Below are positions 3,276 to 29,335 of a stretch of DNA of 32,000 nt, piece after piece. Below the pieces are notes generated by a model. The model did no database searches. It was not told the DNA's origin and saw only the letters and a list, made by a program, of their open reading frames with translations. The stretch comes from [Bacillus] selenitireducens MLS10 (GTDB taxonomy: Bacteria > Bacillota > Bacilli > Bacillales > Salisediminibacteriaceae). A program made the position numbers and the translations under genes. The stretch spans positions 1,634,384 through 1,666,383 of the forward strand of contig NC_014219.1 in assembly GCF_000093085.1 (NCBI RefSeq), given 5' to 3'. Position 1 is the first letter of the stretch, and each line of letters starts with the position of its first letter.

Positions 3276-4653
3276 AGAACGCCTTGACCGCAATGCGATG
3301 ATTGCGTCAGTCGATCTCTCGGACATGAACCGGGAGGAAGCGCGGGAAACGTTACAAAATGAGATCCGCGACTGGCAGGAACAGGCGATTGTGGACGTGA
3401 CCTGGTTTGACGACGTATTGAGCCTCCCTGGAAGCGTCTTTGAGTTCAGAGTGGAGGAGACCCTTGATCACTATTTCTCCGATGAGTCGGATCATGAGGA
3501 ACTGATTGTGCATGTTCGTGAAACGAGCCTCGAAGATCAGCTTCGGAGTCTGACGGCACCGGAAGACATCATCCGGATCGTCGATATGCCTGAGCTGATG
3601 GATCAGCTTGAAGCGGAAGCCTCAGCCTTGAATCTGGAAATTTCAATTCCTTTGCGTGACACCCTTGAGCCCTTTGAACGTCTTGAAGAGACGGTGACGG
3701 TAAGCGTGTCTAGAGGCGTGGATCAGGGGCCGCTCCTTGAAGACTGGCTGTCAAGAGAGCCCGAATGGCTGGTGGAAGCGGGCGAAGAATTCAGAGTCAG
3801 TGATGAGCTCTCACCGTTTAACGGCGGGGAACTGATGAATATCCTGAGCTCCGGTGTGTATGAAGCGGTACTGACGATGAACTTTGACATCATCGAACGG
3901 CATACGAGAGAACAGCGCTATCCGAATGTCCCTCTCGGTTATGACGCCTTTATGGACGGAAACGGCCGGGATCTCGTGTTCCGTAATCCGATGGATACCG
4001 ACTATGTCATCGGGTTTGAAGAGGCATCGGGCGGTCTTTCCATTACGGTGACGGGTTATGAACTGCCGTATATGATGGAAGTCCGTCTCGAAGATGTCCG
4101 TACCGTCGATCCGAAGACGAAAGTGACGCATACCCGGGATCTTGAAGCCGGCGAGTCGAGAATGGACAGTTTTGGCGAGAACGGTGAATTTGCGCTCGTG
4201 ATGCGTTCTCGGTTTGATGAATTTGGCGAGCTGATCGATGAGGAAGTCGTCAGCCGGGACTTTTACCGGTCGGTCAACGCCCTTGAAGAACGAAGCAGCC
4301 TTGAACCGGAGCCAGAGCCCGAGCCGGAAGAAGAGCCAGAGAATGACGGCTTCCCTGAGAACGGCAACGGGGAGTTCCCTGATGAGTTTCCGGACAATGG
4401 CGACTGGGATGATTGGGACGACTGGAACGATTGGAACGGCGGCAACGGGTTTCCGGATAACGGCAATGGAATCGACGGGCAAAACGGGAACGGCTCAACG
4501 GGCAACGGCACAGATCCGTCAAACGGTAACAACAGCGGTACCGGTGACGGATCAGATCAGAACGGCGGTGGCGTGAATGGAACGAACGGGACGAATGGTC
4601 CTGATATACCGTCTTCCACCGATGAGGATGGGAATCCGATCAAAGGCATGTAG
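3169..4653 (+). CDS. Signal-anchored VanW/YoaR-like protein with a W/D/N/G-rich low-complexity C-terminal tail
   Basis: I prefer the internal ATG 3169 (MKKSFLAVLLV..., GGGGG RBS 8 nt upstream) over the ORF-track start at 3100. The segment LSSGVYEAVLTMNFDIIERHTREQRYPNVPLGYDAFMDGNGRDLVFRNPMDTDYVIGFEEASGGLSITVTG follows the VanW-domain pattern as I remember it (G.DA.V...DL.F.N.TDYPI). The tail reads DNGDWDDWDDWNDWNGGNG... Confidence 0.65.
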   Translation: MKKSFLAVLLVTAMSVVFLTTFTYAMTFTYEVLFSEERLDRNAMIASVDLSDMNREEARETLQNEIRDWQEQAIVDVTWFDDVLSLPGSVFEFRVEETLDHYFSDESDHEELIVHVRETSLEDQLRSLTAPEDIIRIVDMPELMDQLEAEASALNLEISIPLRDTLEPFERLEETVTVSVSRGVDQGPLLEDWLSREPEWLVEAGEEFRVSDELSPFNGGELMNILSSGVYEAVLTMNFDIIERHTREQRYPNVPLGYDAFMDGNGRDLVFRNPMDTDYVIGFEEASGGLSITVTGYELPYMMEVRLEDVRTVDPKTKVTHTRDLEAGESRMDSFGENGEFALVMRSRFDEFGELIDEEVVSRDFYRSVNALEERSSLEPEPEPEPEEEPENDGFPENGNGEFPDEFPDNGDWDDWDDWNDWNGGNGFPDNGNGIDGQNGNGSTGNGTDPSNGNNSGTGDGSDQNGGGVNGTNGTNGPDIPSSTDEDGNPIKGM

Positions 4654-4671
4654 ACAGAGCGTACGGACAGG

Positions 4672-6354
4672 ATGGGGGCAACCATAATGGCAAAACAGCG
4701 AAAGCGGATTGGGGACCTGCTTGTGGAAGCGGGTCTCCTCACAGAACAGCAGGTACAGGACGTACTGAAGGTCAAGGGGAGTGAGAAACTCGGGGATGCA
4801 CTGATCTCAAGGGATTATATTACGGAAAATCAGCTCATTGAAGTCCTCGAATTCCAGCTTGGGATTCCCCATGTGCACATCAATCAGCAACCGGTGGATG
4901 AATCGGTGATCCGCCTGATCCCGAGGGACTTCGCCGCACGAAATGAAGTCTTTCCGATACAGAAAAAGAACAATCAGCTCCAGGTGGCGATGAGTGATCC
5001 GATGGACTATGTGACCCTTGAAGACATTCGCATGTCCACGGGGTTCGAAGTCGATCCGGTCATTTCCGGAAGAAGAGAGATCCAGCAGGCGATTGAGCGC
5101 TACTATGATGATCAGGACGGGGATCTGGACCTCGATATCGAAGATCAGGAAGACGACACCATCATCAGCGCCAACGTGGATGCGGAGAACGAGGACGATG
5201 CGCCGATTATCCGTCTCGTTAATAAGGTCCTCGTCAAAGCTGTCGCCAAAGGGGCGTCTGACGTTCATATTGATCCACAGGAGAAGAAGGTCATCGTCCG
5301 GTACCGGGTGGACGGCGTTCTGATGACGGATCGGGCCGTTCCGAAGTCCGATCATAATGCCGTCGTGGCACGAATCAAAATTATGGCGAACCTGAACATT
5401 ACCGAAACCCGCCTGCCGCAGGGCGGACGGGTAAAAGTGTCCATTGAAGGTCGCCCCGTCGATCTGCGGATCGCGACCCTTGCCACCGTATTCGGAGAGA
5501 AGATCGTGATCCGGATCCTTGACATGGACAATGCCGTCAAGGACGTCTCGGAGATCGACCTGAATAAAATCAATCTCGATAAATTCAGACGGCTGATCAA
5601 ACGCCCGTCCGGGATGGTGCTCATTACCGGTCCGACGGGTTCGGGGAAGACGACGACGCTCTATGCGGCGATGACCGCTCTCAATACGCCGGACGTGAAC
5701 CTGATTACCATCGAAGACCCGGTGGAGTACCAGGTCAAGGGGATCAATCAGGTCCAGGTCAATGCGCCGATCGGCCTCACGTTTGCAAGAGGGCTCCGGT
5801 CGATTTTGAGGCAGGACCCGAATATCGTCATGATCGGCGAGATTCGGGATAAGGAAACGGCAGAGATTGCAATCCGTGCTTCCCTCACAGGTCACCTCGT
5901 CTTCAGTACGATTCACACGAACAGTGCCATCGGCACGATTCCGAGACTGATCGACATGGGGATTGAACCGTTCCTCGTCATGAGTTCCCTATCGGGGATC
6001 GTCTCCCAGCGTCTCGTGAGGAAGGTGTGCGCAGAATGCGGGGAGGACTACGAACCGACGGAGAACGAGCGGGCGATGTTCGACAAACGGGGTATACCCC
6101 TTACGAGACTTCGAAGAGGGAAAGGCTGCCCGATCTGTAATGAGACGGGCTACAAGGGCCGCATGGCCATTCATGAAGTGCTCGAAATCGATGACAAGAT
6201 CCGTCGCATGGTGATGAACAACCAGCCGATGGAGGATGTCCGGCTCTATGCGATGGAGCATGACATGATCTTCTTACTTGAAGACGGTCTCTTAAAGGTG
6301 AAACAGGGCAAGACGAGTCTTGAAGAACTTTACCGCGTAGCCATGGACGACTGA
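4672..6354 (+). CDS. pilB: Type IV pilus assembly (extension) ATPase PilB, GspE family
   Basis: Walker A GPTGSGKTTT, Asp box, His box and a tetracysteine CAECG...CPICNETGYKGR. The N-terminus has a GSPII_E_N/MshEN-like domain. ATG 4687 is an alternative start with better spacing to the GGATGGGGG RBS. Confidence 0.93.
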   Translation: MGATIMAKQRKRIGDLLVEAGLLTEQQVQDVLKVKGSEKLGDALISRDYITENQLIEVLEFQLGIPHVHINQQPVDESVIRLIPRDFAARNEVFPIQKKNNQLQVAMSDPMDYVTLEDIRMSTGFEVDPVISGRREIQQAIERYYDDQDGDLDLDIEDQEDDTIISANVDAENEDDAPIIRLVNKVLVKAVAKGASDVHIDPQEKKVIVRYRVDGVLMTDRAVPKSDHNAVVARIKIMANLNITETRLPQGGRVKVSIEGRPVDLRIATLATVFGEKIVIRILDMDNAVKDVSEIDLNKINLDKFRRLIKRPSGMVLITGPTGSGKTTTLYAAMTALNTPDVNLITIEDPVEYQVKGINQVQVNAPIGLTFARGLRSILRQDPNIVMIGEIRDKETAEIAIRASLTGHLVFSTIHTNSAIGTIPRLIDMGIEPFLVMSSLSGIVSQRLVRKVCAECGEDYEPTENERAMFDKRGIPLTRLRRGKGCPICNETGYKGRMAIHEVLEIDDKIRRMVMNNQPMEDVRLYAMEHDMIFLLEDGLLKVKQGKTSLEELYRVAMDD

Positions 6355-6396
6355 ACGTCACGACGATATACTGCATGAAGAAAGGGGCGAACGGCC

Positions 6397-7428
6397 GTGA
6401 AAGAACGGATTGAAGAGCTACTCAGAAAGGCATTCTATGATGGTGCGTCAGATTTGCATATTACCGTGGGTGTGCCCCCGGTCATGCGGACGAACGGTGA
6501 ACTTGAGAAGGTCGGGACCGACATGATGAAACCGGCGGACACGGAAGGGATGGCCCGAGCGATCATTCCGGAAGCGCTCTGGAAGAACTTTGAGAAGAAG
6601 GGGGAGCTCGACTTCTCCTATGGCCTTCGGGGCGTATCCCGCTTTCGGGTGAACGCGTACTTTCAGCGCTCCTGCGTGAGTCTTGCGATCCGCGTGATTC
6701 CGACAGTGATTCCGACGATTGACGATTTGAATATGCCGAAGATCCTGGAATCCATCGCCTCAAAGCCCCAGGGGCTCGTCCTTGTGACCGGACCGACGGG
6801 CTCCGGGAAATCGACGACCCTGGCAGCAATGATCTCATACATGAACACAAGGATGAACCGGCACATCATCACCCTTGAAGATCCGATTGAGTATTTGCAT
6901 AAGCACGGCACGTCGGTGATTGACCAGCGCGAGATCGGCTTTGACACGCAGAACTTCGCCAACGGCCTCCGGGCGGCGCTCCGTCAGGATCCGGATGTGA
7001 TTCTCGTCGGGGAGATGCGGGATCTTGAGACGATCTCCACGGCGATTACCGCGGCGGAAACCGGACACCTCGTCCTCGGTACGCTTCATACGACGAACGC
7101 GCCGTCAACGATTGACCGGATCATTGACGTCTTCCCCCCGGGCCAGCAGGATCAGATCCGCATACAGGTGGCCTCTGTCCTCACGTCGGTCATCTCGCAG
7201 CGTCTTCTTCGCACGAGAGACGGCGGCGGCCGGGTGGCGGCGACGGAGATTCTCATGAATACGCCGGCGGTGAAGAACCTGATCCGAAACGAAAAGATTC
7301 ACCAGATCCCGTCCACGATGCAGACCGGTAAGGCAGAAGGGATGCACACAATGGAGATGGCCGTGAAGGATCTCCTGCAGGAGCGCAAGATCAGTGAAGA
7401 AACGGCAGCTTATATCCTGTCGGAATAA
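6397..7428 (+). CDS. pilT: Type IV pilus retraction ATPase PilT
   Basis: 343 aa with a GTG start. Motifs are GPTGSGKSTT, the typical PilT LRQDPDVILVGEMRD and GHLVLGTLHT, and the AIRNLIRE-like box (AVKNLIRNEK). Confidence 0.93.
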   Translation: MKERIEELLRKAFYDGASDLHITVGVPPVMRTNGELEKVGTDMMKPADTEGMARAIIPEALWKNFEKKGELDFSYGLRGVSRFRVNAYFQRSCVSLAIRVIPTVIPTIDDLNMPKILESIASKPQGLVLVTGPTGSGKSTTLAAMISYMNTRMNRHIITLEDPIEYLHKHGTSVIDQREIGFDTQNFANGLRAALRQDPDVILVGEMRDLETISTAITAAETGHLVLGTLHTTNAPSTIDRIIDVFPPGQQDQIRIQVASVLTSVISQRLLRTRDGGGRVAATEILMNTPAVKNLIRNEKIHQIPSTMQTGKAEGMHTMEMAVKDLLQERKISEETAAYILSE

Positions 7429-7487
7429 CAGAAACAATCCATTCAAATGATCCATGAACGGATCCAGTCAGGAAAGGAGGACGGCAG

Positions 7488-8696
7488 ATGGCTTACTATC
7501 AATACGAAGCCCGCTCGAAGCAGGGCGAGCTTGTCTCCGGCAAAATCAAAGCCGATTCAAAGCTGCAGGCAGAGCGTAAACTGACGGATGAGAAGGGTGT
7601 CAATGTCTTGAACCTCAGTCAGATGGAAGGCATTCTCTATCAGGATATCGAGGTCTTCAGCCGGGTATCGAGCAAGGATATGGTCATCTTCCTGAGGCAG
7701 ATGACGACGCTCTTGACGGCCGGGATTTCCCTCGTCGACAGCGTGCGTCTCCTCGGAGAACAGACCCCAAACAAGGCGCTCCGCTCAGCCCTCGTCGAAG
7801 TGGAGGAAGACCTGAGGCAGGGCATCAGTATGTCCCAGTCCACAGAAAAGCACAGAAAAGTCTTTCAACCGCTCGTTGTGAACATGATCCGCGCCGGGGA
7901 GGCCGGGGGTAACCTCGATGAGATCTTCGAACGCCTCGCCGTTTATTATGAAAAACAGAACCGGATTAAGCAGAAGGTCATCTCCGCCCTCGCCTATCCG
8001 GCCACCCTTGGCGTCATCGCCATCGGGGTCGTCATGTTTCTTCTCGCGGTCGTCGTGCCTAGCTTTGCGGACATGTTCGCGGGCTTTGACAGTGAACTGC
8101 CCTGGATTACGCTGTTTGTCCTCAATGCCGGGGATTGGATGCAGTCGTGGGTATGGCTGATTCTTCTCCTCACGGTGGCCGCGATCTTCGGGATCCGTGC
8201 TGCGCGGAAGAATGACGATATGCGGTATTATCTTGACTATTTCATGTTAAAGATGCCGATCGTCGGAGGGATTCTTCAAAAATCCGCCCTGGCCAGGATG
8301 TCCAGGACACTGAGTTCACTCTTTACAAGCTCCGTACCCGTCCTGCAGGCGACATCGATCGTTGAGCGGGTCGTGGGGAACGAAGTCCTCGCGAACGTCA
8401 TACGCGACATCCGGACCTCCCTTGAAAAAGGGGAGTCCATGGCCGGACCGATGGAGAAGCACTGGATGTTCCCGCCGCTCGTTGTCCAGATGGTCGTTGT
8501 CGGGGAACGGACCGGTTCTCTTGACCAGATGCTTGACCGTGTGGCACTCTTCTATGAGGAGGAAGTGGATCAGGCAGCGGAGAGGCTGAAGAGTCTCATG
8601 GAGCCGATGCTTATTGCCGTTCTCGCCGTTGTAGTCGGGGTCATCGTCGCATCCATCGCCATCCCGATGTTTGAAATCTTTGACACGATTGGATAA
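7488..8696 (+). CDS. pilC: Type IV pilus platform protein PilC (GspF family)
   Basis: 402 aa with two GspF repeats (...VNMIRAGEAGGNLD..., ...VQMVVVGERTGSLD...) and 3 TM segments. GGAAAGGAGG RBS. Confidence 0.92.
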   Translation: MAYYQYEARSKQGELVSGKIKADSKLQAERKLTDEKGVNVLNLSQMEGILYQDIEVFSRVSSKDMVIFLRQMTTLLTAGISLVDSVRLLGEQTPNKALRSALVEVEEDLRQGISMSQSTEKHRKVFQPLVVNMIRAGEAGGNLDEIFERLAVYYEKQNRIKQKVISALAYPATLGVIAIGVVMFLLAVVVPSFADMFAGFDSELPWITLFVLNAGDWMQSWVWLILLLTVAAIFGIRAARKNDDMRYYLDYFMLKMPIVGGILQKSALARMSRTLSSLFTSSVPVLQATSIVERVVGNEVLANVIRDIRTSLEKGESMAGPMEKHWMFPPLVVQMVVVGERTGSLDQMLDRVALFYEEEVDQAAERLKSLMEPMLIAVLAVVVGVIVASIAIPMFEIFDTIG

Positions 8697-8871: not shown

Positions 8872-8982
8872 GTCTGAGGATTGAAGCTGGATCAGGGGTA
8901 ACGACAATTGGATGCTGAGAAGAAATGGGTACTATCTGGGCACTTAACCATTTTGGAGCTGCTAGTGCAACCGGCCGGAGAC
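8872..8982 (+). promoter_or_regulatory. Candidate c-di-GMP-II riboswitch aptamer in the 5' leader of the pilin genes (core 8921-8978; outer boundary uncertain)
   Basis: Four ordered blocks are present: AAATGGGT (8923-8930), TGGGCACTT (8937-8945), CATTTTGG (8949-8956) and TAGTGCAACCG (8963-8973). They reproduce, with the same 6-nt spacing between the first two, the core of the class II c-di-GMP aptamer as I remember it (...GAAUGGGUUUAAAUUGGGCACUUGACUCAUUUUGAGUUAGUAGUGCAACCGACCG...). GCACT and AGTGC can pair. P1 could not be assigned cleanly. Confidence 0.7.
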
Positions 8983-9007
8983 ATTTTTTTGTTTTGGCCG
9001 GTTTTTT
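8969..9007 (+). terminator. Intrinsic terminator acting as the riboswitch expression platform
   Basis: AACCGGCC (8969-8976) pairs with GGCCGGTT (8996-9003) and is followed by a T-run to 9007. The 5' arm is the conserved 3' end of the aptamer core. Confidence 0.6.
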
Positions 9008-9062: not shown

Positions 9063-9551
9063 ATGAAGATGAGGTTACGGATCAAAAGAACCGGAAACCA
9101 AAAAGGACTTACACTCGTTGAACTGCTCGCGGTCATCGTGATTCTCGGGATTATTGCGGCGATAGCTGTTCCGGCCATCGGATCGATTATCGAAAATTCC
9201 CGAAAAGACGCTCAGATTGCCAACGCCGAAAATATATACAATGCAGCAAGGCTGGCTGTTGCGTCAGAGAGCATTGTTGCATCGGACACGGATACGTGGA
9301 CTTTTTACGCAACTGAAGCCGAGACAGATAATACAGATACCTCGAGAACGGACAGCAGACTCAATCTCCTCGAAGAACGGTATCTGGACACCACTCCGCA
9401 GGATCCGCACGGAGACGGCGTGTATACAGATGCTTATATTACTTACGATGGCAGTGAGTACACGGTTGTTTTAAATGAATATTTCGGTGCAGGTGGCACC
9501 GCGATTTCCACAATCCGCTCGAGTGACCGGGATATCGTGAACCTGGATTAA
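9063..9551 (+). CDS. pilA: Type IV prepilin (pilin 1)
   Basis: Class III signal peptide ...NQKG|LTLVELLAVIVILGIIAAIAVP with Glu at +5. G-rich RBS at 9055-9062. ATG 9069 is an alternative start. Confidence 0.9.
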   Translation: MKMRLRIKRTGNQKGLTLVELLAVIVILGIIAAIAVPAIGSIIENSRKDAQIANAENIYNAARLAVASESIVASDTDTWTFYATEAETDNTDTSRTDSRLNLLEERYLDTTPQDPHGDGVYTDAYITYDGSEYTVVLNEYFGAGGTAISTIRSSDRDIVNLD

Positions 9552-9661: not shown

Positions 9662-10132
9662 ATGAAAAAATGGTTGAAGAATCAAAAAGGTTTGACGCTT
9701 GTTGAACTGTTGGCAGTCATCGTGATTTTGGGGATCATTGCAGCGATTGCCGTTCCGGCGATTGGGAACATCATTGAGAACAGCAGGAAAGACGCGCAGA
9801 TTGCGAATGCGGAGGCATTGTATGATGCGGCAAGATTGGCACAGGCTGGGGATAATATAAGTGGGGATGTTACGTTTATTGCAGTTGAAGAAAATGATGA
9901 TAATTATATTGTGCCTCCCGAAAATGATAATACAGATGAATATTCACTAGTTAATTACATCGAATCTTCTTTTCCGGAAAGTGACTCGTTCAGTGATAGC
10001 TATATTAGTGCAGTAGTAGCTGTTGTGGATGGCGAGTATACAATTACTCTTGAAGGGCTTGAAGGGACGTATATTGATGCTACGATCCAAGAAATAAGAG
10101 AAGATGGACGAGATGTTGTTGAAGCTCCGTAA
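9662..10132 (+). CDS. Type IV prepilin (pilin 2, paralog of pilin 1)
   Basis: MKKWLKNQKG|LTLVELLAVIVILGIIAAIAVPAIGNIIENSRKDAQIANAE is nearly identical at protein level to pilin 1 for about 55 aa. The C-terminal domain is divergent and AT-rich. AAGGGAGAG RBS. Confidence 0.9.
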   Translation: MKKWLKNQKGLTLVELLAVIVILGIIAAIAVPAIGNIIENSRKDAQIANAEALYDAARLAQAGDNISGDVTFIAVEENDDNYIVPPENDNTDEYSLVNYIESSFPESDSFSDSYISAVVAVVDGEYTITLEGLEGTYIDATIQEIREDGRDVVEAP

Positions 10133-16158: not shown

Positions 16159-16845
16159 ATGGCAATGACACTGACAATGAACGACGTCCCAAAGGTGGAG
16201 CGCCCGAGGGAACGCATGCTGTTTGAAGGTCCGGAGGCATGTACGAATCAGGATCTGATCGCGATTCTTCTCGGCTCAGGGACGAAGAAAGAATCGGTTC
16301 TCGATCTGTCGAACCGCGTGATCAGTCACTTTAACGGAATCCGTCTCCTTGAAGAGGCGACGATTCAGGAGCTTACGGCACTGAGCGGGATCGGTGAGGC
16401 GAAGGCTGTTCAGCTGAGAGCGGCCATTGAACTCGGGAAACGCATCCGCAGTTATCCGAAGGAAATGAAGTATGTGATCCGCTCCCCGAAAGATGCGTCG
16501 GATTTTGTGATGGAAGATATGCGCACGTTGACGCAGGAGCACTTCGTCTGTTTGTTTTTGTCGACGAAGAATCAGGTCATTCACCGGCAGACGATCTTCA
16601 TCGGCAGTCTGAACATGAGCGTCGTGCACCCGAGAGAGATTTTCAAGGCGGCCCTTCGCTACTCGGCGGCTTCGATGATCTGCATTCACAATCATCCGTC
16701 CGGGGATACGGCTCCGAGTCAGGAGGACATCGATGTGACGAAGCGGCTCGTTGAAGTCGGCAAAACCATTGGCATCGACGTCCTTGATCACGTGATTGTC
16801 GGGGATCACAGCTTTTGTTCATTAAAAGAAAAGGGTTACGTCTGA
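16159..16845 (+). CDS. radC: RadC-family JAMM-motif protein
   Basis: ATG 16159 lies 7 nt after AGGAGG. It has an HhH-like region (LSGIGEAKAVQL) and the JAMM motif HNHPSGDTAPSQED. The longer ORF-track start at 15982 overlaps maf and is rejected. Confidence 0.9.
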   Translation: MAMTLTMNDVPKVERPRERMLFEGPEACTNQDLIAILLGSGTKKESVLDLSNRVISHFNGIRLLEEATIQELTALSGIGEAKAVQLRAAIELGKRIRSYPKEMKYVIRSPKDASDFVMEDMRTLTQEHFVCLFLSTKNQVIHRQTIFIGSLNMSVVHPREIFKAALRYSAASMICIHNHPSGDTAPSQEDIDVTKRLVEVGKTIGIDVLDHVIVGDHSFCSLKEKGYV

Positions 16846-16856
16846 AATTCCCGCAC

Positions 16857-16902
16857 ACACCTCGGTTCTGTAATGATATACTACAGAGCAGAGGTGTTTT
16901 TT
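16857..16902 (+). terminator. Intrinsic terminator after radC
   Basis: ACACCTC/GAGGTGT outer stem and TCTGTA/TACAGA inner stem, followed by a T-run at 16897-16902. Confidence 0.7.
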
Positions 16903-17014
16903 GTACTTCAGAAATGTTTAACGCCGATAAAGGATGATCGTATACGTGCAACGGAGGCTTTCGCCATTGAGGCTTGGCGAGAAGCCGCGTTTCCTTTATG
17001 GCCCGGATGACACC
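16903..17014 (+). repeat. Unassigned conserved structured element, copy A (paired with 29218-29335)
   Basis: A hand alignment gives 80 of 96 identical positions with copy B. A nested hairpin is conserved: TAAAGGA (16928-16934)/TCCTTTA (16992-16998) encloses GGCTT-TCGCCA-loop8-TGGCGA-g-AAGCC (16956-16986). It starts directly after a terminator T-run. Confidence 0.6.
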
Positions 17015-17094
17015 GGCAGCTCACGATCGGCAAAGGCTTTGATACCTCAGGCTAGGAAGAATTGAGGAATTTCATGTGATCCATGTAAAACCCT

Positions 17095-17122
17095 ACTCAA
17101 TCAACCTCTGATTGAGTATAAT
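17095..17122 (+). promoter_or_regulatory. Candidate mreB promoter -10 overlapped by a perfect 9-bp inverted repeat
   Basis: ACTCAATCA (17095-17103), a 5-nt loop, then TGATTGAGT (17109-17117). TATAAT sits at 17117-17122. The -35 position reads only TACTCA. Confidence 0.35.
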
Positions 17123-17248
17123 AAGGCGTACCGGGTTTTGCCGGTATTGCTCATTGATGATAATCGATCAAAAAAATGACAAAACGATACGATGCTTATA
17201 CGCACAGAAGCAAAAAGCTTCTTGACGATTGAAGGGAGAAATTGATTC

Positions 17249-18286
17249 ATGTTTGCAGGATTTTCGAAAGACCTTGGGATTGACCTCGGGACAGCCAATA
17301 CACTCGTTTATGTAAAAGGAAAAGGCGTTATTTTAAGGGAGCCGTCCGTTGTGGCGATCCGTCAGGATACAGGACATATTGAAGCCGTCGGCAGTGATGC
17401 ACGGAATATGATTGGGCGTACACCGGGAAATATTGTGGCGATTCGTCCGATGCGGGACGGTGTGATTGCAGACTTTGACACGACGGCGACCATGATGAAG
17501 TATTTTATCCGTCAGGCACTCAGAAACCGCTCGATTTTCACGCGAAAACCGAATGTCATGGTCTGCGTACCGTCCGGCATTACGGCCGTTGAGAAGCGTG
17601 CTGTGGAGGATGCGACGAAGCAGGCAGGCGCCAAGGAAGCTTATACGATTGAGGAACCGTTTGCCGCAGCAATCGGGGCGAATCTGCCGGTATGGGAACC
17701 GACGGGAAGCATGGTTGTTGACATCGGTGGCGGTACGACGGAAGTGGCGATCATCTCCCTCGGGGGGATTGTCACAAGCCAGTCCGTCCGCGTGGCCGGT
17801 GATGAGATGGATGAGTCCATCGTGCAGTATATCAAACGAACATACAGCCTGATGATCGGGGAGCGTACAGCGGAATCGATCAAGTTCGAAATCGGCTCGG
17901 CATCGAAGGAGCATCCGGGTGGCGATATGGATATTCGCGGCCGGGATCTCGTCACAGGCCTGCCAAAGACAATGACGATTACCGGCAGTGAGATTGCCGG
18001 GGCTCTTGAAGATACGGTCAATGCGATCGTCGCTGCGGTCAAGGATACCCTCGAACAGTCTCCGCCTGAACTCGCAGCGGATATTATGGACCGGGGTATC
18101 GTTCTGACGGGCGGCGGTGCGCTCTTAAAGAACCTCGATCACGTCCTTGGCAACGAGACGAATATGCCGGTACACGTGGCGGAAGATCCCCTTGACAGCG
18201 TGGCGATCGGGACCGGTAAGGCCCTTGAGAACCTCCATCTGTTCCGCTCGAAGGCGGGCATTACCGCACGTTCAAATCGAAAATAA
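17249..18286 (+). CDS. mreB: Rod-shape-determining actin homolog MreB
   Basis: [23 protein letters not shown]..., [10 protein letters not shown] and [11 protein letters not shown] motifs. GAAGGGAG RBS. Confidence 0.95.
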
Positions 18287-28094: not shown

Positions 28095-28200
28095 GTTAGT
28101 TGTTTGGATGCACCCAAAGAACTGCAACCGCACAGATCAGGTTTGGTTTCCATGTAAGCACATTCGTGCACCTGTAATGGCGAGTCTGAGTATTGAAGGA
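28095..28200 (+). promoter_or_regulatory. Long 5' leader of rplU, positionally equivalent to the Bacillales L21 leader
   Basis: About 115 nt lie between the promoter and the AGGAGG RBS, with several short hairpins (TTTGG/CCAAA, GCAC/GTGC). I could not verify the family consensus by eye. Confidence 0.4.
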
Positions 28201-29176: not shown

Positions 29177-29188
29177 ACCGAAAAGCAG

Positions 29189-29217
29189 GAGACTCTCTCA
29201 TGAGGGTCTCTTTTTTT
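29189..29217 (+). terminator. Intrinsic terminator after rpmA
   Basis: GAGACTCTC-tcat-GAGGGTCTC followed by TTTTTTT. Confidence 0.85.
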
Positions 29218-29335
29218 GTACTATAGGAATGTTTAACCCCGTTAAAGGATTATAGTATAAGTGCAACTAAGGCTTTCGCCATCGTGGCTTGGCGACAAGC
29301 CAAGTTTTCTTTACAATAAATGGCGCGGATACACA
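29218..29335 (+). repeat. Unassigned conserved structured element, copy B (paired with 16903-17014)
   Basis: It has the same order of blocks as copy A. GGCTTTCGCCA/TGGCGAcAAGCC is an identical stem, and the differences fall in the loop and the bulge. The outer stem TAAAGGA/TTCTTTA keeps pairing through a G-U wobble. Confidence 0.6.

Follow-up and report, generated by a model that had tools for sequence, protein, structure and literature searches.

The stretch of DNA analysed here, called the window in what follows, comprises 32,000 nt of [Bacillus] selenitireducens MLS10 (NC_014219.1, positions 1,634,384 to 1,666,383 of the forward strand), and it carries two copies of a short non-coding element, each placed directly behind a transcription terminator. 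Copy A lies 3' of radC (Pfam RadC) and upstream of mreB, and copy B lies 3' of rpmA (L27) and upstream of a gene for a protein of the MBL fold. An earlier note on this DNA had described a conserved pair of repeats starting after the radC terminator, and this pair is real: 16897-16998 and 29212-29313 align over 102 nt without a gap at 84% identity, and they are the sole long non-coding repeat in the window. The core of the repeat, GGCTTTCGCCA-N8-TGGCGA-N-AAGCC, occurs exactly twice in the window and did not appear in any of 100 shuffles. The placement right behind a T-run also held for both copies, with the run of the radC terminator (16897-16902) before copy A and that of the rpmA terminator (29211-29217) before copy B. 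The T-run and the one base that follows it are flank; the element proper has 95 nt (16904-16998 in copy A, 29219-29313 in copy B). Its ends, among them the right boundary, were fixed from empty sites, that is, from corresponding sites without the element. The parts of the two copies and their targets are as follows.

16858 to 16896, plus strand: hairpin of the radC intrinsic terminator, CACCTC...GAGGTG with an extended imperfect stem, as read from the sequence; pre-existing host DNA.
16897 to 16903, plus strand: target of copy A, the T6 run of the radC terminator and the flanking base G; the element begins right after it.
16904 to 16998, plus strand: copy A of the 95-nt repeat, degenerate (covariance model R1, 69.2 bits, E about 1e-11); 95-98 nt are missing here in the relative L122.
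16904 to 16942, plus strand: remnant of hairpin 1 in copy A, TACTTCAG...TGATCGTA, from the cmsearch alignment (family consensus TACTATCAG...TGATAGTA-TAAG).
16943 to 16955, plus strand: conserved single-stranded linker of copy A, TACGTGCAACGGA, from the alignments (family consensus TAAGTGCAACTAA).
16956 to 16986, plus strand: hairpin 2 of copy A, GGCTTTCGCCA, an 8-nt loop and TGGCGA-G-AAGCC, with one bulged base.
16987 to 16998, plus strand: conserved T-rich tail of copy A, GCGTTTCCTTTA, with which the element ends on the right; in the family the consensus is AAGTTTTCTTTA or AAGTTTTTCTAA.
29187 to 29218, plus strand: target of copy B, the rpmA terminator hairpin (an 11-pair stem followed by a T-run in the scan), its T7 run and one flanking base.
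29219 to 29313, plus strand: copy B, near-consensus (R1, 102.5 bits), every helix intact.
29219 to 29257, 29258 to 29270, 29271 to 29301 and 29302 to 29313, plus strand: hairpin 1, linker, hairpin 2 and tail of copy B.

When the whole window was searched with R1, only copies A and B were matched. The minimum-free-energy fold of copy B contains both hairpins. Its hairpin 1 (TACTATAG...TTATAGTA) is the conserved upstream structure, of which four of the eight outer pairs are broken in copy A, and the 11-bp bulged hairpin 2 is present in both copies as part of their minimum-free-energy folds. Taken together with the scores of 69 and 102 bits, copy A appears to be an old copy in decay. The motif GGCTT occurs twice in hairpin 2, in the 5' arm and in the loop (16967-16986 and 29282-29306), and a shorter alternative hairpin, GGCTT-GGCGAN-AAGCC, is possible; it is confined to the subfamilies whose loop ends in GCTT. 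As regards other copies in this strain, the Logan contig L123 (SRR000237; contigs and loci are cited by L numbers) is 100% identical to the window across rpmA and ends at its position 1572 within copy B, at ...AAGTGCAACT. This independent contig break inside copy B suggests that further near-identical copies exist elsewhere in MLS10.

Close relatives either have or lack the element as one exact unit. In L122 (Logan SRR33871320), whose RadC is 98% identical, the radC-mreB spacer has no element: it keeps GGTGTTTTTT and continues directly with CATGGCT. The junction reads ...GAGGTGTTTTTT/CATGGCTCAGACGACACC in L122 and ...GAGGTGTTTTTT-G-[95 nt]-TGGCCCGGATGACACC in MLS10. Copy A is likewise absent from the radC-mreB spacer of L121, a 90% relative, and both relatives keep the radC terminator hairpin with its T-run. 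A second pair is perfectly clean: L035 of Thalassobacillus reads ...GTGACGTTTTTTG/TCACAGAGAGG (with the longer left flank, ...CGTGACGTTTTTTG/TCACAGAGAGG) and is empty, and the paralogous copies in L008, L090 and L111 have the 95 nt TAC...CTAA, neither more nor less, inserted between the same flanks. It should be noted that this pair consists of copies of a repeat associated with Bacillaceae-1, i.e. the site is paralogous. No target duplication is present at the clean empty and filled sites. At the L035-type site the T-run forms the loop of a small GTGAC/GTCAC hairpin instead of a terminator tail, so the T-tract itself seems to be the recognised feature. For copy B, the orthologous site in the more distant L124 and L125 has no element, but the spacer is too diverged there to give a clean empty site.

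In Halobacillus and Thalassobacillus, Bacillaceae-1 RNAs (RF01690) adjoin the element (L090, 7253-7321; L008, 1973-2093; L052, 1758-1796), and the empty copy of the site linked to them lies at about 1180-1200 of L035. The GTGAC/GTCAC hairpin belongs to a larger repeated unit, CCCCCGACAAGCTTAAG...CTTAAGACCTCGAGGGGG, around Bacillaceae-1, and this larger unit looks like an undescribed extension of that motif.

Copies A and B belong to a large interspersed family of non-coding repeats. A first census, made by scanning contigs of one genome per species with the exact pattern of hairpin 2, gave at least 120 loci; among the matches listed, nearly all came from Bacillaceae, with more than 20 genera represented, which include Thalassobacillus, Halobacillus, Virgibacillus, Lentibacillus, Natribacillus, Oceanobacillus, Gracilibacillus, Metabacillus, Salipaludibacillus, Evansella, Scopulibacillus and others. 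Natribacillus alone has at least 17 loci in one genome. Comparison of the flanks showed that conservation extends over the whole unit of about 95 nt and beyond hairpin 2 alone. The covariance model R1, built from 28 copies, recovered 123 copies in 0.8 Mb of fetched loci, some of them with a hairpin 2 unlike the search pattern. A second scan used the linker alone as its anchor, so that the sequence of hairpin 2 had no influence; of the 63 metagenomic loci obtained, about 50 are true copies. In total, more than 170 copies were collected from more than 20 genera of Bacillaceae and from metagenomes; the repeat is conserved well beyond this genome. The family is thus widespread and multi-copy in halophilic and alkaliphilic Bacillaceae, and each carrier genome has its own typical sequence variants. 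No match was obtained in plasmid and phage collections by BLASTN with copy B, in viral contigs by the exact-pattern scan, or in a first metagenome scan with a 41-nt pattern specific for MLS10. In three Natribacillus loci (L024 at about 5260-5300, L034 and L079), a sequence of about 45 nt, ggtttgcgctgctccaataatggttgttttcat, stands in place of the hairpin-1 5' arm. On the opposite strand it has the form of the start of an open reading frame (ORF; MKTTIIGAAQT), but no long ORF follows in L024; these loci may represent either a composite repeat or a duplicated segment that includes the element.

The unit has a constant order: the T-run and one flanking base, hairpin 1, the linker ATAAG(TGCAAC or AAAAAC)TAA, hairpin 2, and the tail AAGTTTT(T)CT(AA or TTA). 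Both hairpins covary strongly, and linker and tail are conserved in sequence. In the model-fitted alignment, 88.9% of the cells are paired (79.6% in shuffles) and 23 of the 34 pairs show two-sided changes; the observed pairing values were reached by 0 of 500 shuffles, and slid registers were only 33-49% paired. A structure specified by hand on a plain MAFFT alignment gave the same picture. Hairpin 1 exists as ACTTTAA/TTAAAGT, ACTATCA/TGATAGT, ACTGAT/ATCAGT, GCAGTAAGAAAG/CTTTCTTACTGC and, in L147, as a GC-rich form. The seeming invariance of hairpin 2 in the first set arose because this hairpin was the search key; in the linker-anchored set it covaries freely (GGTTGTCACC/GGTGACAACC, GACCATCGCC/GGCGATGGTC, GGCATTCGCC/GGCGAATGCC, GACATTTGCC/GGCAAATGTC) while the tail CAAGTTTTCTAA stays constant. 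The family structure consists of two hairpins side by side and not of the nested fold proposed before. Of that proposal, the 11-bp bulged hairpin stands in both copies. The outer stem TAAAGGA/TCCTTTA does not: it occurs in the fold of copy A, but across the family its positions are 67.9% paired against 68.2% in shuffles, and it did no better than slid controls either.

Mismatches of the G-T and A-C kinds are equally frequent in the stems (28:31, 19:16 and 4:6), so there is no sign of the G-U surplus that selection on a single strand of RNA would usually produce, and neither strand is favoured. The two element ends, TAC(T/A)TT... and ...TTTTCTAA, do not form an inverted repeat, and the only inverted repeats are the internal hairpins. 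Hairpin 2 with the tail was scored as terminator-like by the scan in both window copies. Within the AAAAAC subfamily, linker and tail pair with each other (AGAAAAACT/AGTTTTTCT, with C-G compensations), which yields the order A-tract, stem, T-tract.

With respect to the insertion sites, 117 of 119 copies are intergenic, and the typical distance from the preceding stop codon is 30-90 nt. The element has the orientation of the upstream gene in 71 cases and the opposite one in 38 (28 and 6 in the AAAAAC subfamily). Neighbouring genes are unrelated and stand in both orientations. The target logo of 80 copies shows T at 74-93% from -7 to -2, a purine at 75% at -1 and T at 60% at +1. In the same number of copies, direct repeats across the junction were distributed as in the shuffled control, so there is no target-site duplication. 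Of 104 copies, 22 have a strictly defined terminator stem whose end lies 4-14 nt before them, where 0.5 would be expected, and by eye many more copies have an imperfect terminator stem upstream; the T6-7 run of the target is usually the T-tract of a Rho-independent terminator. New copies also stand directly behind the terminator-like tail of another copy, and head-to-tail arrays result, as in L033 (two copies), L044, L091/L093 and L147 (three copies). In L147 (RWZD01000083.1, minus strand, about 4490-4760) three perfect head-to-tail copies follow each other with a period of 89 nt. They have a GC-rich hairpin 1 (TCGGAAAGGC-tgtt-CGCCTTACCGA), the junctions between copies run from ...TTTTCT into TCGCTG, and the final copy ends in ...TTTTCTAA.

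The element inserts in one orientation, one base after six or seven T, with neither terminal inverted repeats nor target-site duplications. In our opinion, copies A and B are probably two insertions of a non-coding, non-autonomous mobile repeat of 95 nt that targets T-tracts and is moved possibly by an HUH-type enzyme. Insertion exactly behind the T-runs of terminators makes it most likely that we are dealing with selfish mobile DNA and not with a regulator of mreB.

HUH enzymes, such as TnpA of IS200/IS605, RAYT, TnpA of IS91, Rep proteins and relaxases, recognise a hairpin together with an adjacent single-stranded motif. A trans-acting enzyme that recognises single-stranded DNA by its fold, through the hairpins and the conserved single-stranded motifs beside them, could accordingly move the element, whose architecture would best fit HUH-type enzymes of the IS200/IS605, IS91 or Rep-like kinds. 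Such a mechanism would explain why the stems are kept by compensatory changes, as the fold and not the stem sequence would be recognised. IS91 and IS200/IS605 leave neither inverted nor direct repeats on insertion (PMC5714925). In the inserted element, hairpin 2 and the U-rich tail would give read-through transcripts a second terminator or 3'-end hairpin, in both directions in the AAAAAC subfamily, and this extra termination would make insertion behind genes nearly harmless or even mildly useful. The terminator-like tail of the element can itself serve as a target, giving the head-to-tail arrays. On the best reading, the terminator-likeness of hairpin 2 is a by-product.

Several observations weigh against this interpretation. 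The empty and filled junctions of copy A differ by CA and G, respectively, so that this pair is near-exact and not perfectly clean. Hairpins 1 and 2 are dissimilar in sequence, and unpaired conserved motifs beside covarying stems are also a classic signature of functional RNA. In MLS10, two copies were seen in the 32 kb of the window, and one assembly break hints at others. Survival of harmless insertions, and not targeting, could account for part of the association with terminators. Besides, no autonomous partner or transposase was found: no ORF is repeated beside the copies, no neighbour family is enriched, and an all-against-all BLASTP of 759 flanking ORFs gave generic paralogue clusters only. 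Long elements with the same left end, which might be autonomous, were sought as well, and only three decayed copies came up.

The comparison with known systems started from Rfam 15. At the gathering score over the whole window nothing matched the element, at E<=10 over 16800-17300 the only matches were of chance level (mir-239, E=0.59; ctRNA_pGA1, E=5.9), and near-consensus copies in 12 other loci gave nothing on the element and RF01690 matches beside it. Its failure to fit any known riboswitch or small-RNA family, as stated in the earlier note, was borne out for Rfam at both thresholds. Bacillaceae-1, which had been named as a candidate, must be discarded, as RF01690 does not match the element at either threshold. 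Both are multi-copy in the same taxa, and the element is sometimes inserted inside or next to Bacillaceae-1 units, but the two differ in sequence and in structure. No published description of the family was found in full-text literature searches, where only general reviews and the SPRITE repeats were relevant; this is not proof of absence.

Classical miniature inverted-repeat transposable elements resemble the family in being short, non-coding, multi-copy and polymorphic for presence and absence, but differ from it in their terminal inverted repeats and target-site duplications. PATEs, which are non-autonomous derivatives of IS200/IS605, and REP/RAYT elements, both associated with HUH Y1 transposases, lack both of these features, have hairpin ends conserved in structure, insert in fixed orientation 3' of a short target and reach many copies. 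The tag of REP/RAYT is a GTAG (or CGTC) tetranucleotide beside a GC-rich palindrome (PMC3733652). By contrast, hairpin 1 of the present family starts with TAC... or GCAG..., is AT-rich and lacks the GTAG tag. The IS200/IS605 type is approached by the absence of terminal inverted repeats and target-site duplications, by subterminal hairpins and by oriented insertion 3' of a short conserved target. IS200/IS605 ends usually carry mutually similar hairpins, and their known targets are tetra- or pentanucleotides such as TTAC; here, however, the target is a T6-7 run and the hairpins are mutually dissimilar. Among the ORFs that flank the copies, no Y2 or Rep-type enzyme was found, and no Y1 transposase is known to belong to the family. 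IS91 targets GAAC or CAAG. It lacks inverted repeats and makes no direct repeats, and its transposase is a relative of the Reps of the pUB110 family (PMC5714925). The family resembles IS91/ISCR in having no inverted repeats and no direct repeats at insertion, and the arrays would fit imperfect termination of rolling-circle transposition.

A further likeness concerns plasmid origins. In the Natribacillus type, the 3' arm of hairpin 1 and the linker read CTTTCTTATC[A/C/T]TG-C-ATAAG, and copies of Natribacillus halophilus with the CTTTCTTATC motif are found in L034 (3032), L022, L024, L074, L079, L082, L099 and L105. The motif is close to the nick region of the double-strand origin of the pC194 family, TCTTTCTTATCTTG/ATAATA (PMC5037232), but belongs to one subfamily only and is absent from the window copies. 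With at most one mismatch, the origin-like 13-mer had 12 matches outside the element in 2.46 Mb, so it is not rare in these AT-rich genomes, and the resemblance is a hint, to be used as a lead only.

Class C group II introns also insert in one orientation right after the T-run of intrinsic terminators. The present element differs from them in its 95 nt (more than 400 nt in the introns), in having no ribozyme domains and in giving no Intron_gpII match at E<=10. As for SPRITE, it is likewise a short, AT-rich, non-coding repeat with a long stem followed by a U-rich tract near gene 3' ends, and neither it nor the present family has convincing terminal inverted repeats, target-site duplications or an identified transposase (PMC3049150). 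SPRITE differs in that it forms a single 18-bp duplex, is limited to S. pneumoniae and S. mitis, and has no empty sites found (PMC3049150), whereas our family has two hairpins, conserved linkers, many genera, empty sites and a T-tract target; the two were compared by description. Thus, the closest described analogue is SPRITE by behaviour, the hairpin-ended HUH elements by architecture, and the class C group II introns by target. The boldest form of the preferred reading would be that the family represents an unrecognised class of T-tract-targeting, non-autonomous transposons without terminal inverted repeats or target-site duplications, which an HUH enzyme (Rep/IS91-like or IS200/IS605-like) would mobilise in the form of folded single strands and which would have spread to the DNA 3' of terminators in a large part of the Bacillaceae, with the pC194-like motif of one subfamily as the nick site; taken as a whole, we regard this as rather unlikely.

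Other explanations were weighed. The family could be a functional structured RNA, either a trans-acting small RNA (a 5' hairpin, a seed AUAAGUGCAACUAA and a terminator hairpin) or a protein-bound module of 3' untranslated regions. The covarying stems with constant linker and tail, and the maintenance of the family across many genera, are what such an RNA would show; the succession of a 5' hairpin, an unpaired tract and a GC-rich hairpin with U-rich tail resembles a small RNA, and inspection of the consensus shows a weak sigma-A-like TTAACT-17-TATAAG in the type-1 hairpin 1. Nevertheless, no promoter is common to both hairpin-1 types, the terminator that usually lies upstream would block transcription into the copies, and G-U is not favoured over A-C in the stems. 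The exact presence and absence at two sites, the head-to-tail arrays, the genome-specific variants and the lack of an Rfam match or of any gene association also speak against it, and we consider this explanation unlikely. The same is true of the functional RNA specific for this locus that had been proposed from the sequence: copy A is absent in L122 and L121, the neighbours of the family are unrelated and the stem mismatches are symmetric. Since the nearest relatives lack the element and hairpin 1 of copy A is damaged, a regulatory RNA specific for mreB is unlikely. The element is also not likely to represent a new regulatory RNA in general. The element could also have spread as a repeat and then have been recruited by the host as a back-up or bidirectional terminator and stabiliser of mRNA 3' ends, for which function it would now be kept. 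Similar recruitment has been proposed for SPRITE and REP elements, and insertions that are harmless or mildly useful have been argued for in the case of pneumococcal SPRITE (PMC3049150). The terminator-like hairpin 2 and tail of both window copies, the linker-tail pairing of the AAAAAC subfamily with its A-tract, stem and T-tract, and the clustering of copies at gene 3' ends (median 39-44 nt to the stop of the convergent gene) agree with recruitment. Most copies, however, lie behind a terminator that already exists, the 'bidirectional' AAAAAC subfamily was tested and is not enriched at convergent genes, and copy A is dispensable in a near-identical strain and decaying; recruitment appears quite unlikely to us.

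A last possibility concerns copy A alone, which would supply a promoter of the extracytoplasmic function (ECF) sigma type (SigM/W/X), TTTAAC-16-CGTATA, to drive mreBCD-minCD under envelope stress; the earlier note had read an ECF-sigma-like promoter there. The hexamers exist: TTTAAC (16917-16922) and CGTATA (16939-16944) lie at the hairpin-1 remnant, and AAC and CGT stand at the 16-nt spacing within 16917-16944. The C of CGT is, however, private to copy A, since copy B and the family consensus have AGTATAAG at this position, and it arose by the same mutation that breaks hairpin 1, which makes the promoter doubtful. In the maf-radC-mreB operon of B. subtilis an ECF-dependent promoter does exist, which speaks for this reading, but this promoter (P2) sits inside maf, and the one between radC and mreB (P3) is sigma-A dependent (PMC4474612). 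A simple sigma-70 scan of copy A gave no promoter. The closest relatives lack the whole element and keep the following feature downstream of the insertion.

17110 to 17145, plus strand: conserved sigma-A-like -10, TATAAT (17117-17122), and hairpin of the 5' untranslated region, TACCGG-GTTT-TGCCGGTA, probably those of mreB, outside the element.

This segment, TTGAGTATAATAAGGCGTACCGGGTTTTGCCGG, does not vary among MLS10, L122 and L121, in contrast to the remainder of the radC-mreB spacer, which has diverged; the TATAAT with the hairpin is probably the native sigma-A promoter region of mreB. A role of copy A in mreB expression appears unlikely, and an ECF promoter that controls mreBCD-minCD from it is highly improbable, although copy A may have created a weak promoter of this kind by accident.

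Other structured features of the window lie apart from the element. A c-di-GMP-II riboswitch (8901-8984, plus strand, 53.9 bits against a gathering score of 53.5) precedes two paralogous genes (9063-9551 and 9662-10132) with the N-methylation motif of type IV pilins, which share a repeat of 161 nt at 73% identity (9096-9256 and 9680-9840). The surrounding cluster resembles type IV pilus genes by ORF size alone (ORFs of pilB, pilT and pilC size, 4672-8696). An L21 leader (RF00559, 54.8 bits; 28116-28197, plus strand) is located upstream of rplU-ysxB-rpmA, where it is an expected feature.

The family is one more kind of small non-autonomous bacterial repeat, useful for annotation and mildly interesting mechanistically. 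The element could otherwise be mistaken for a riboswitch, a small RNA or a promoter before mreB and before dozens of other genes, and it breaks short-read assemblies; with the covariance model and the boundaries described above, it can be masked or annotated in genomes throughout the Bacillaceae. Its set of features, namely insertion one base after a T-tract, no terminal inverted repeats, no target-site duplication, and two covarying hairpins with invariant single-stranded motifs, was unmatched among the described bacterial small repeats that we found, and points to an enzyme that reads the structure of single-stranded DNA as its partner. If identified, this enzyme would add a terminator- or T-tract-directed insertion system and would explain the repeats that accumulate at gene 3' ends.

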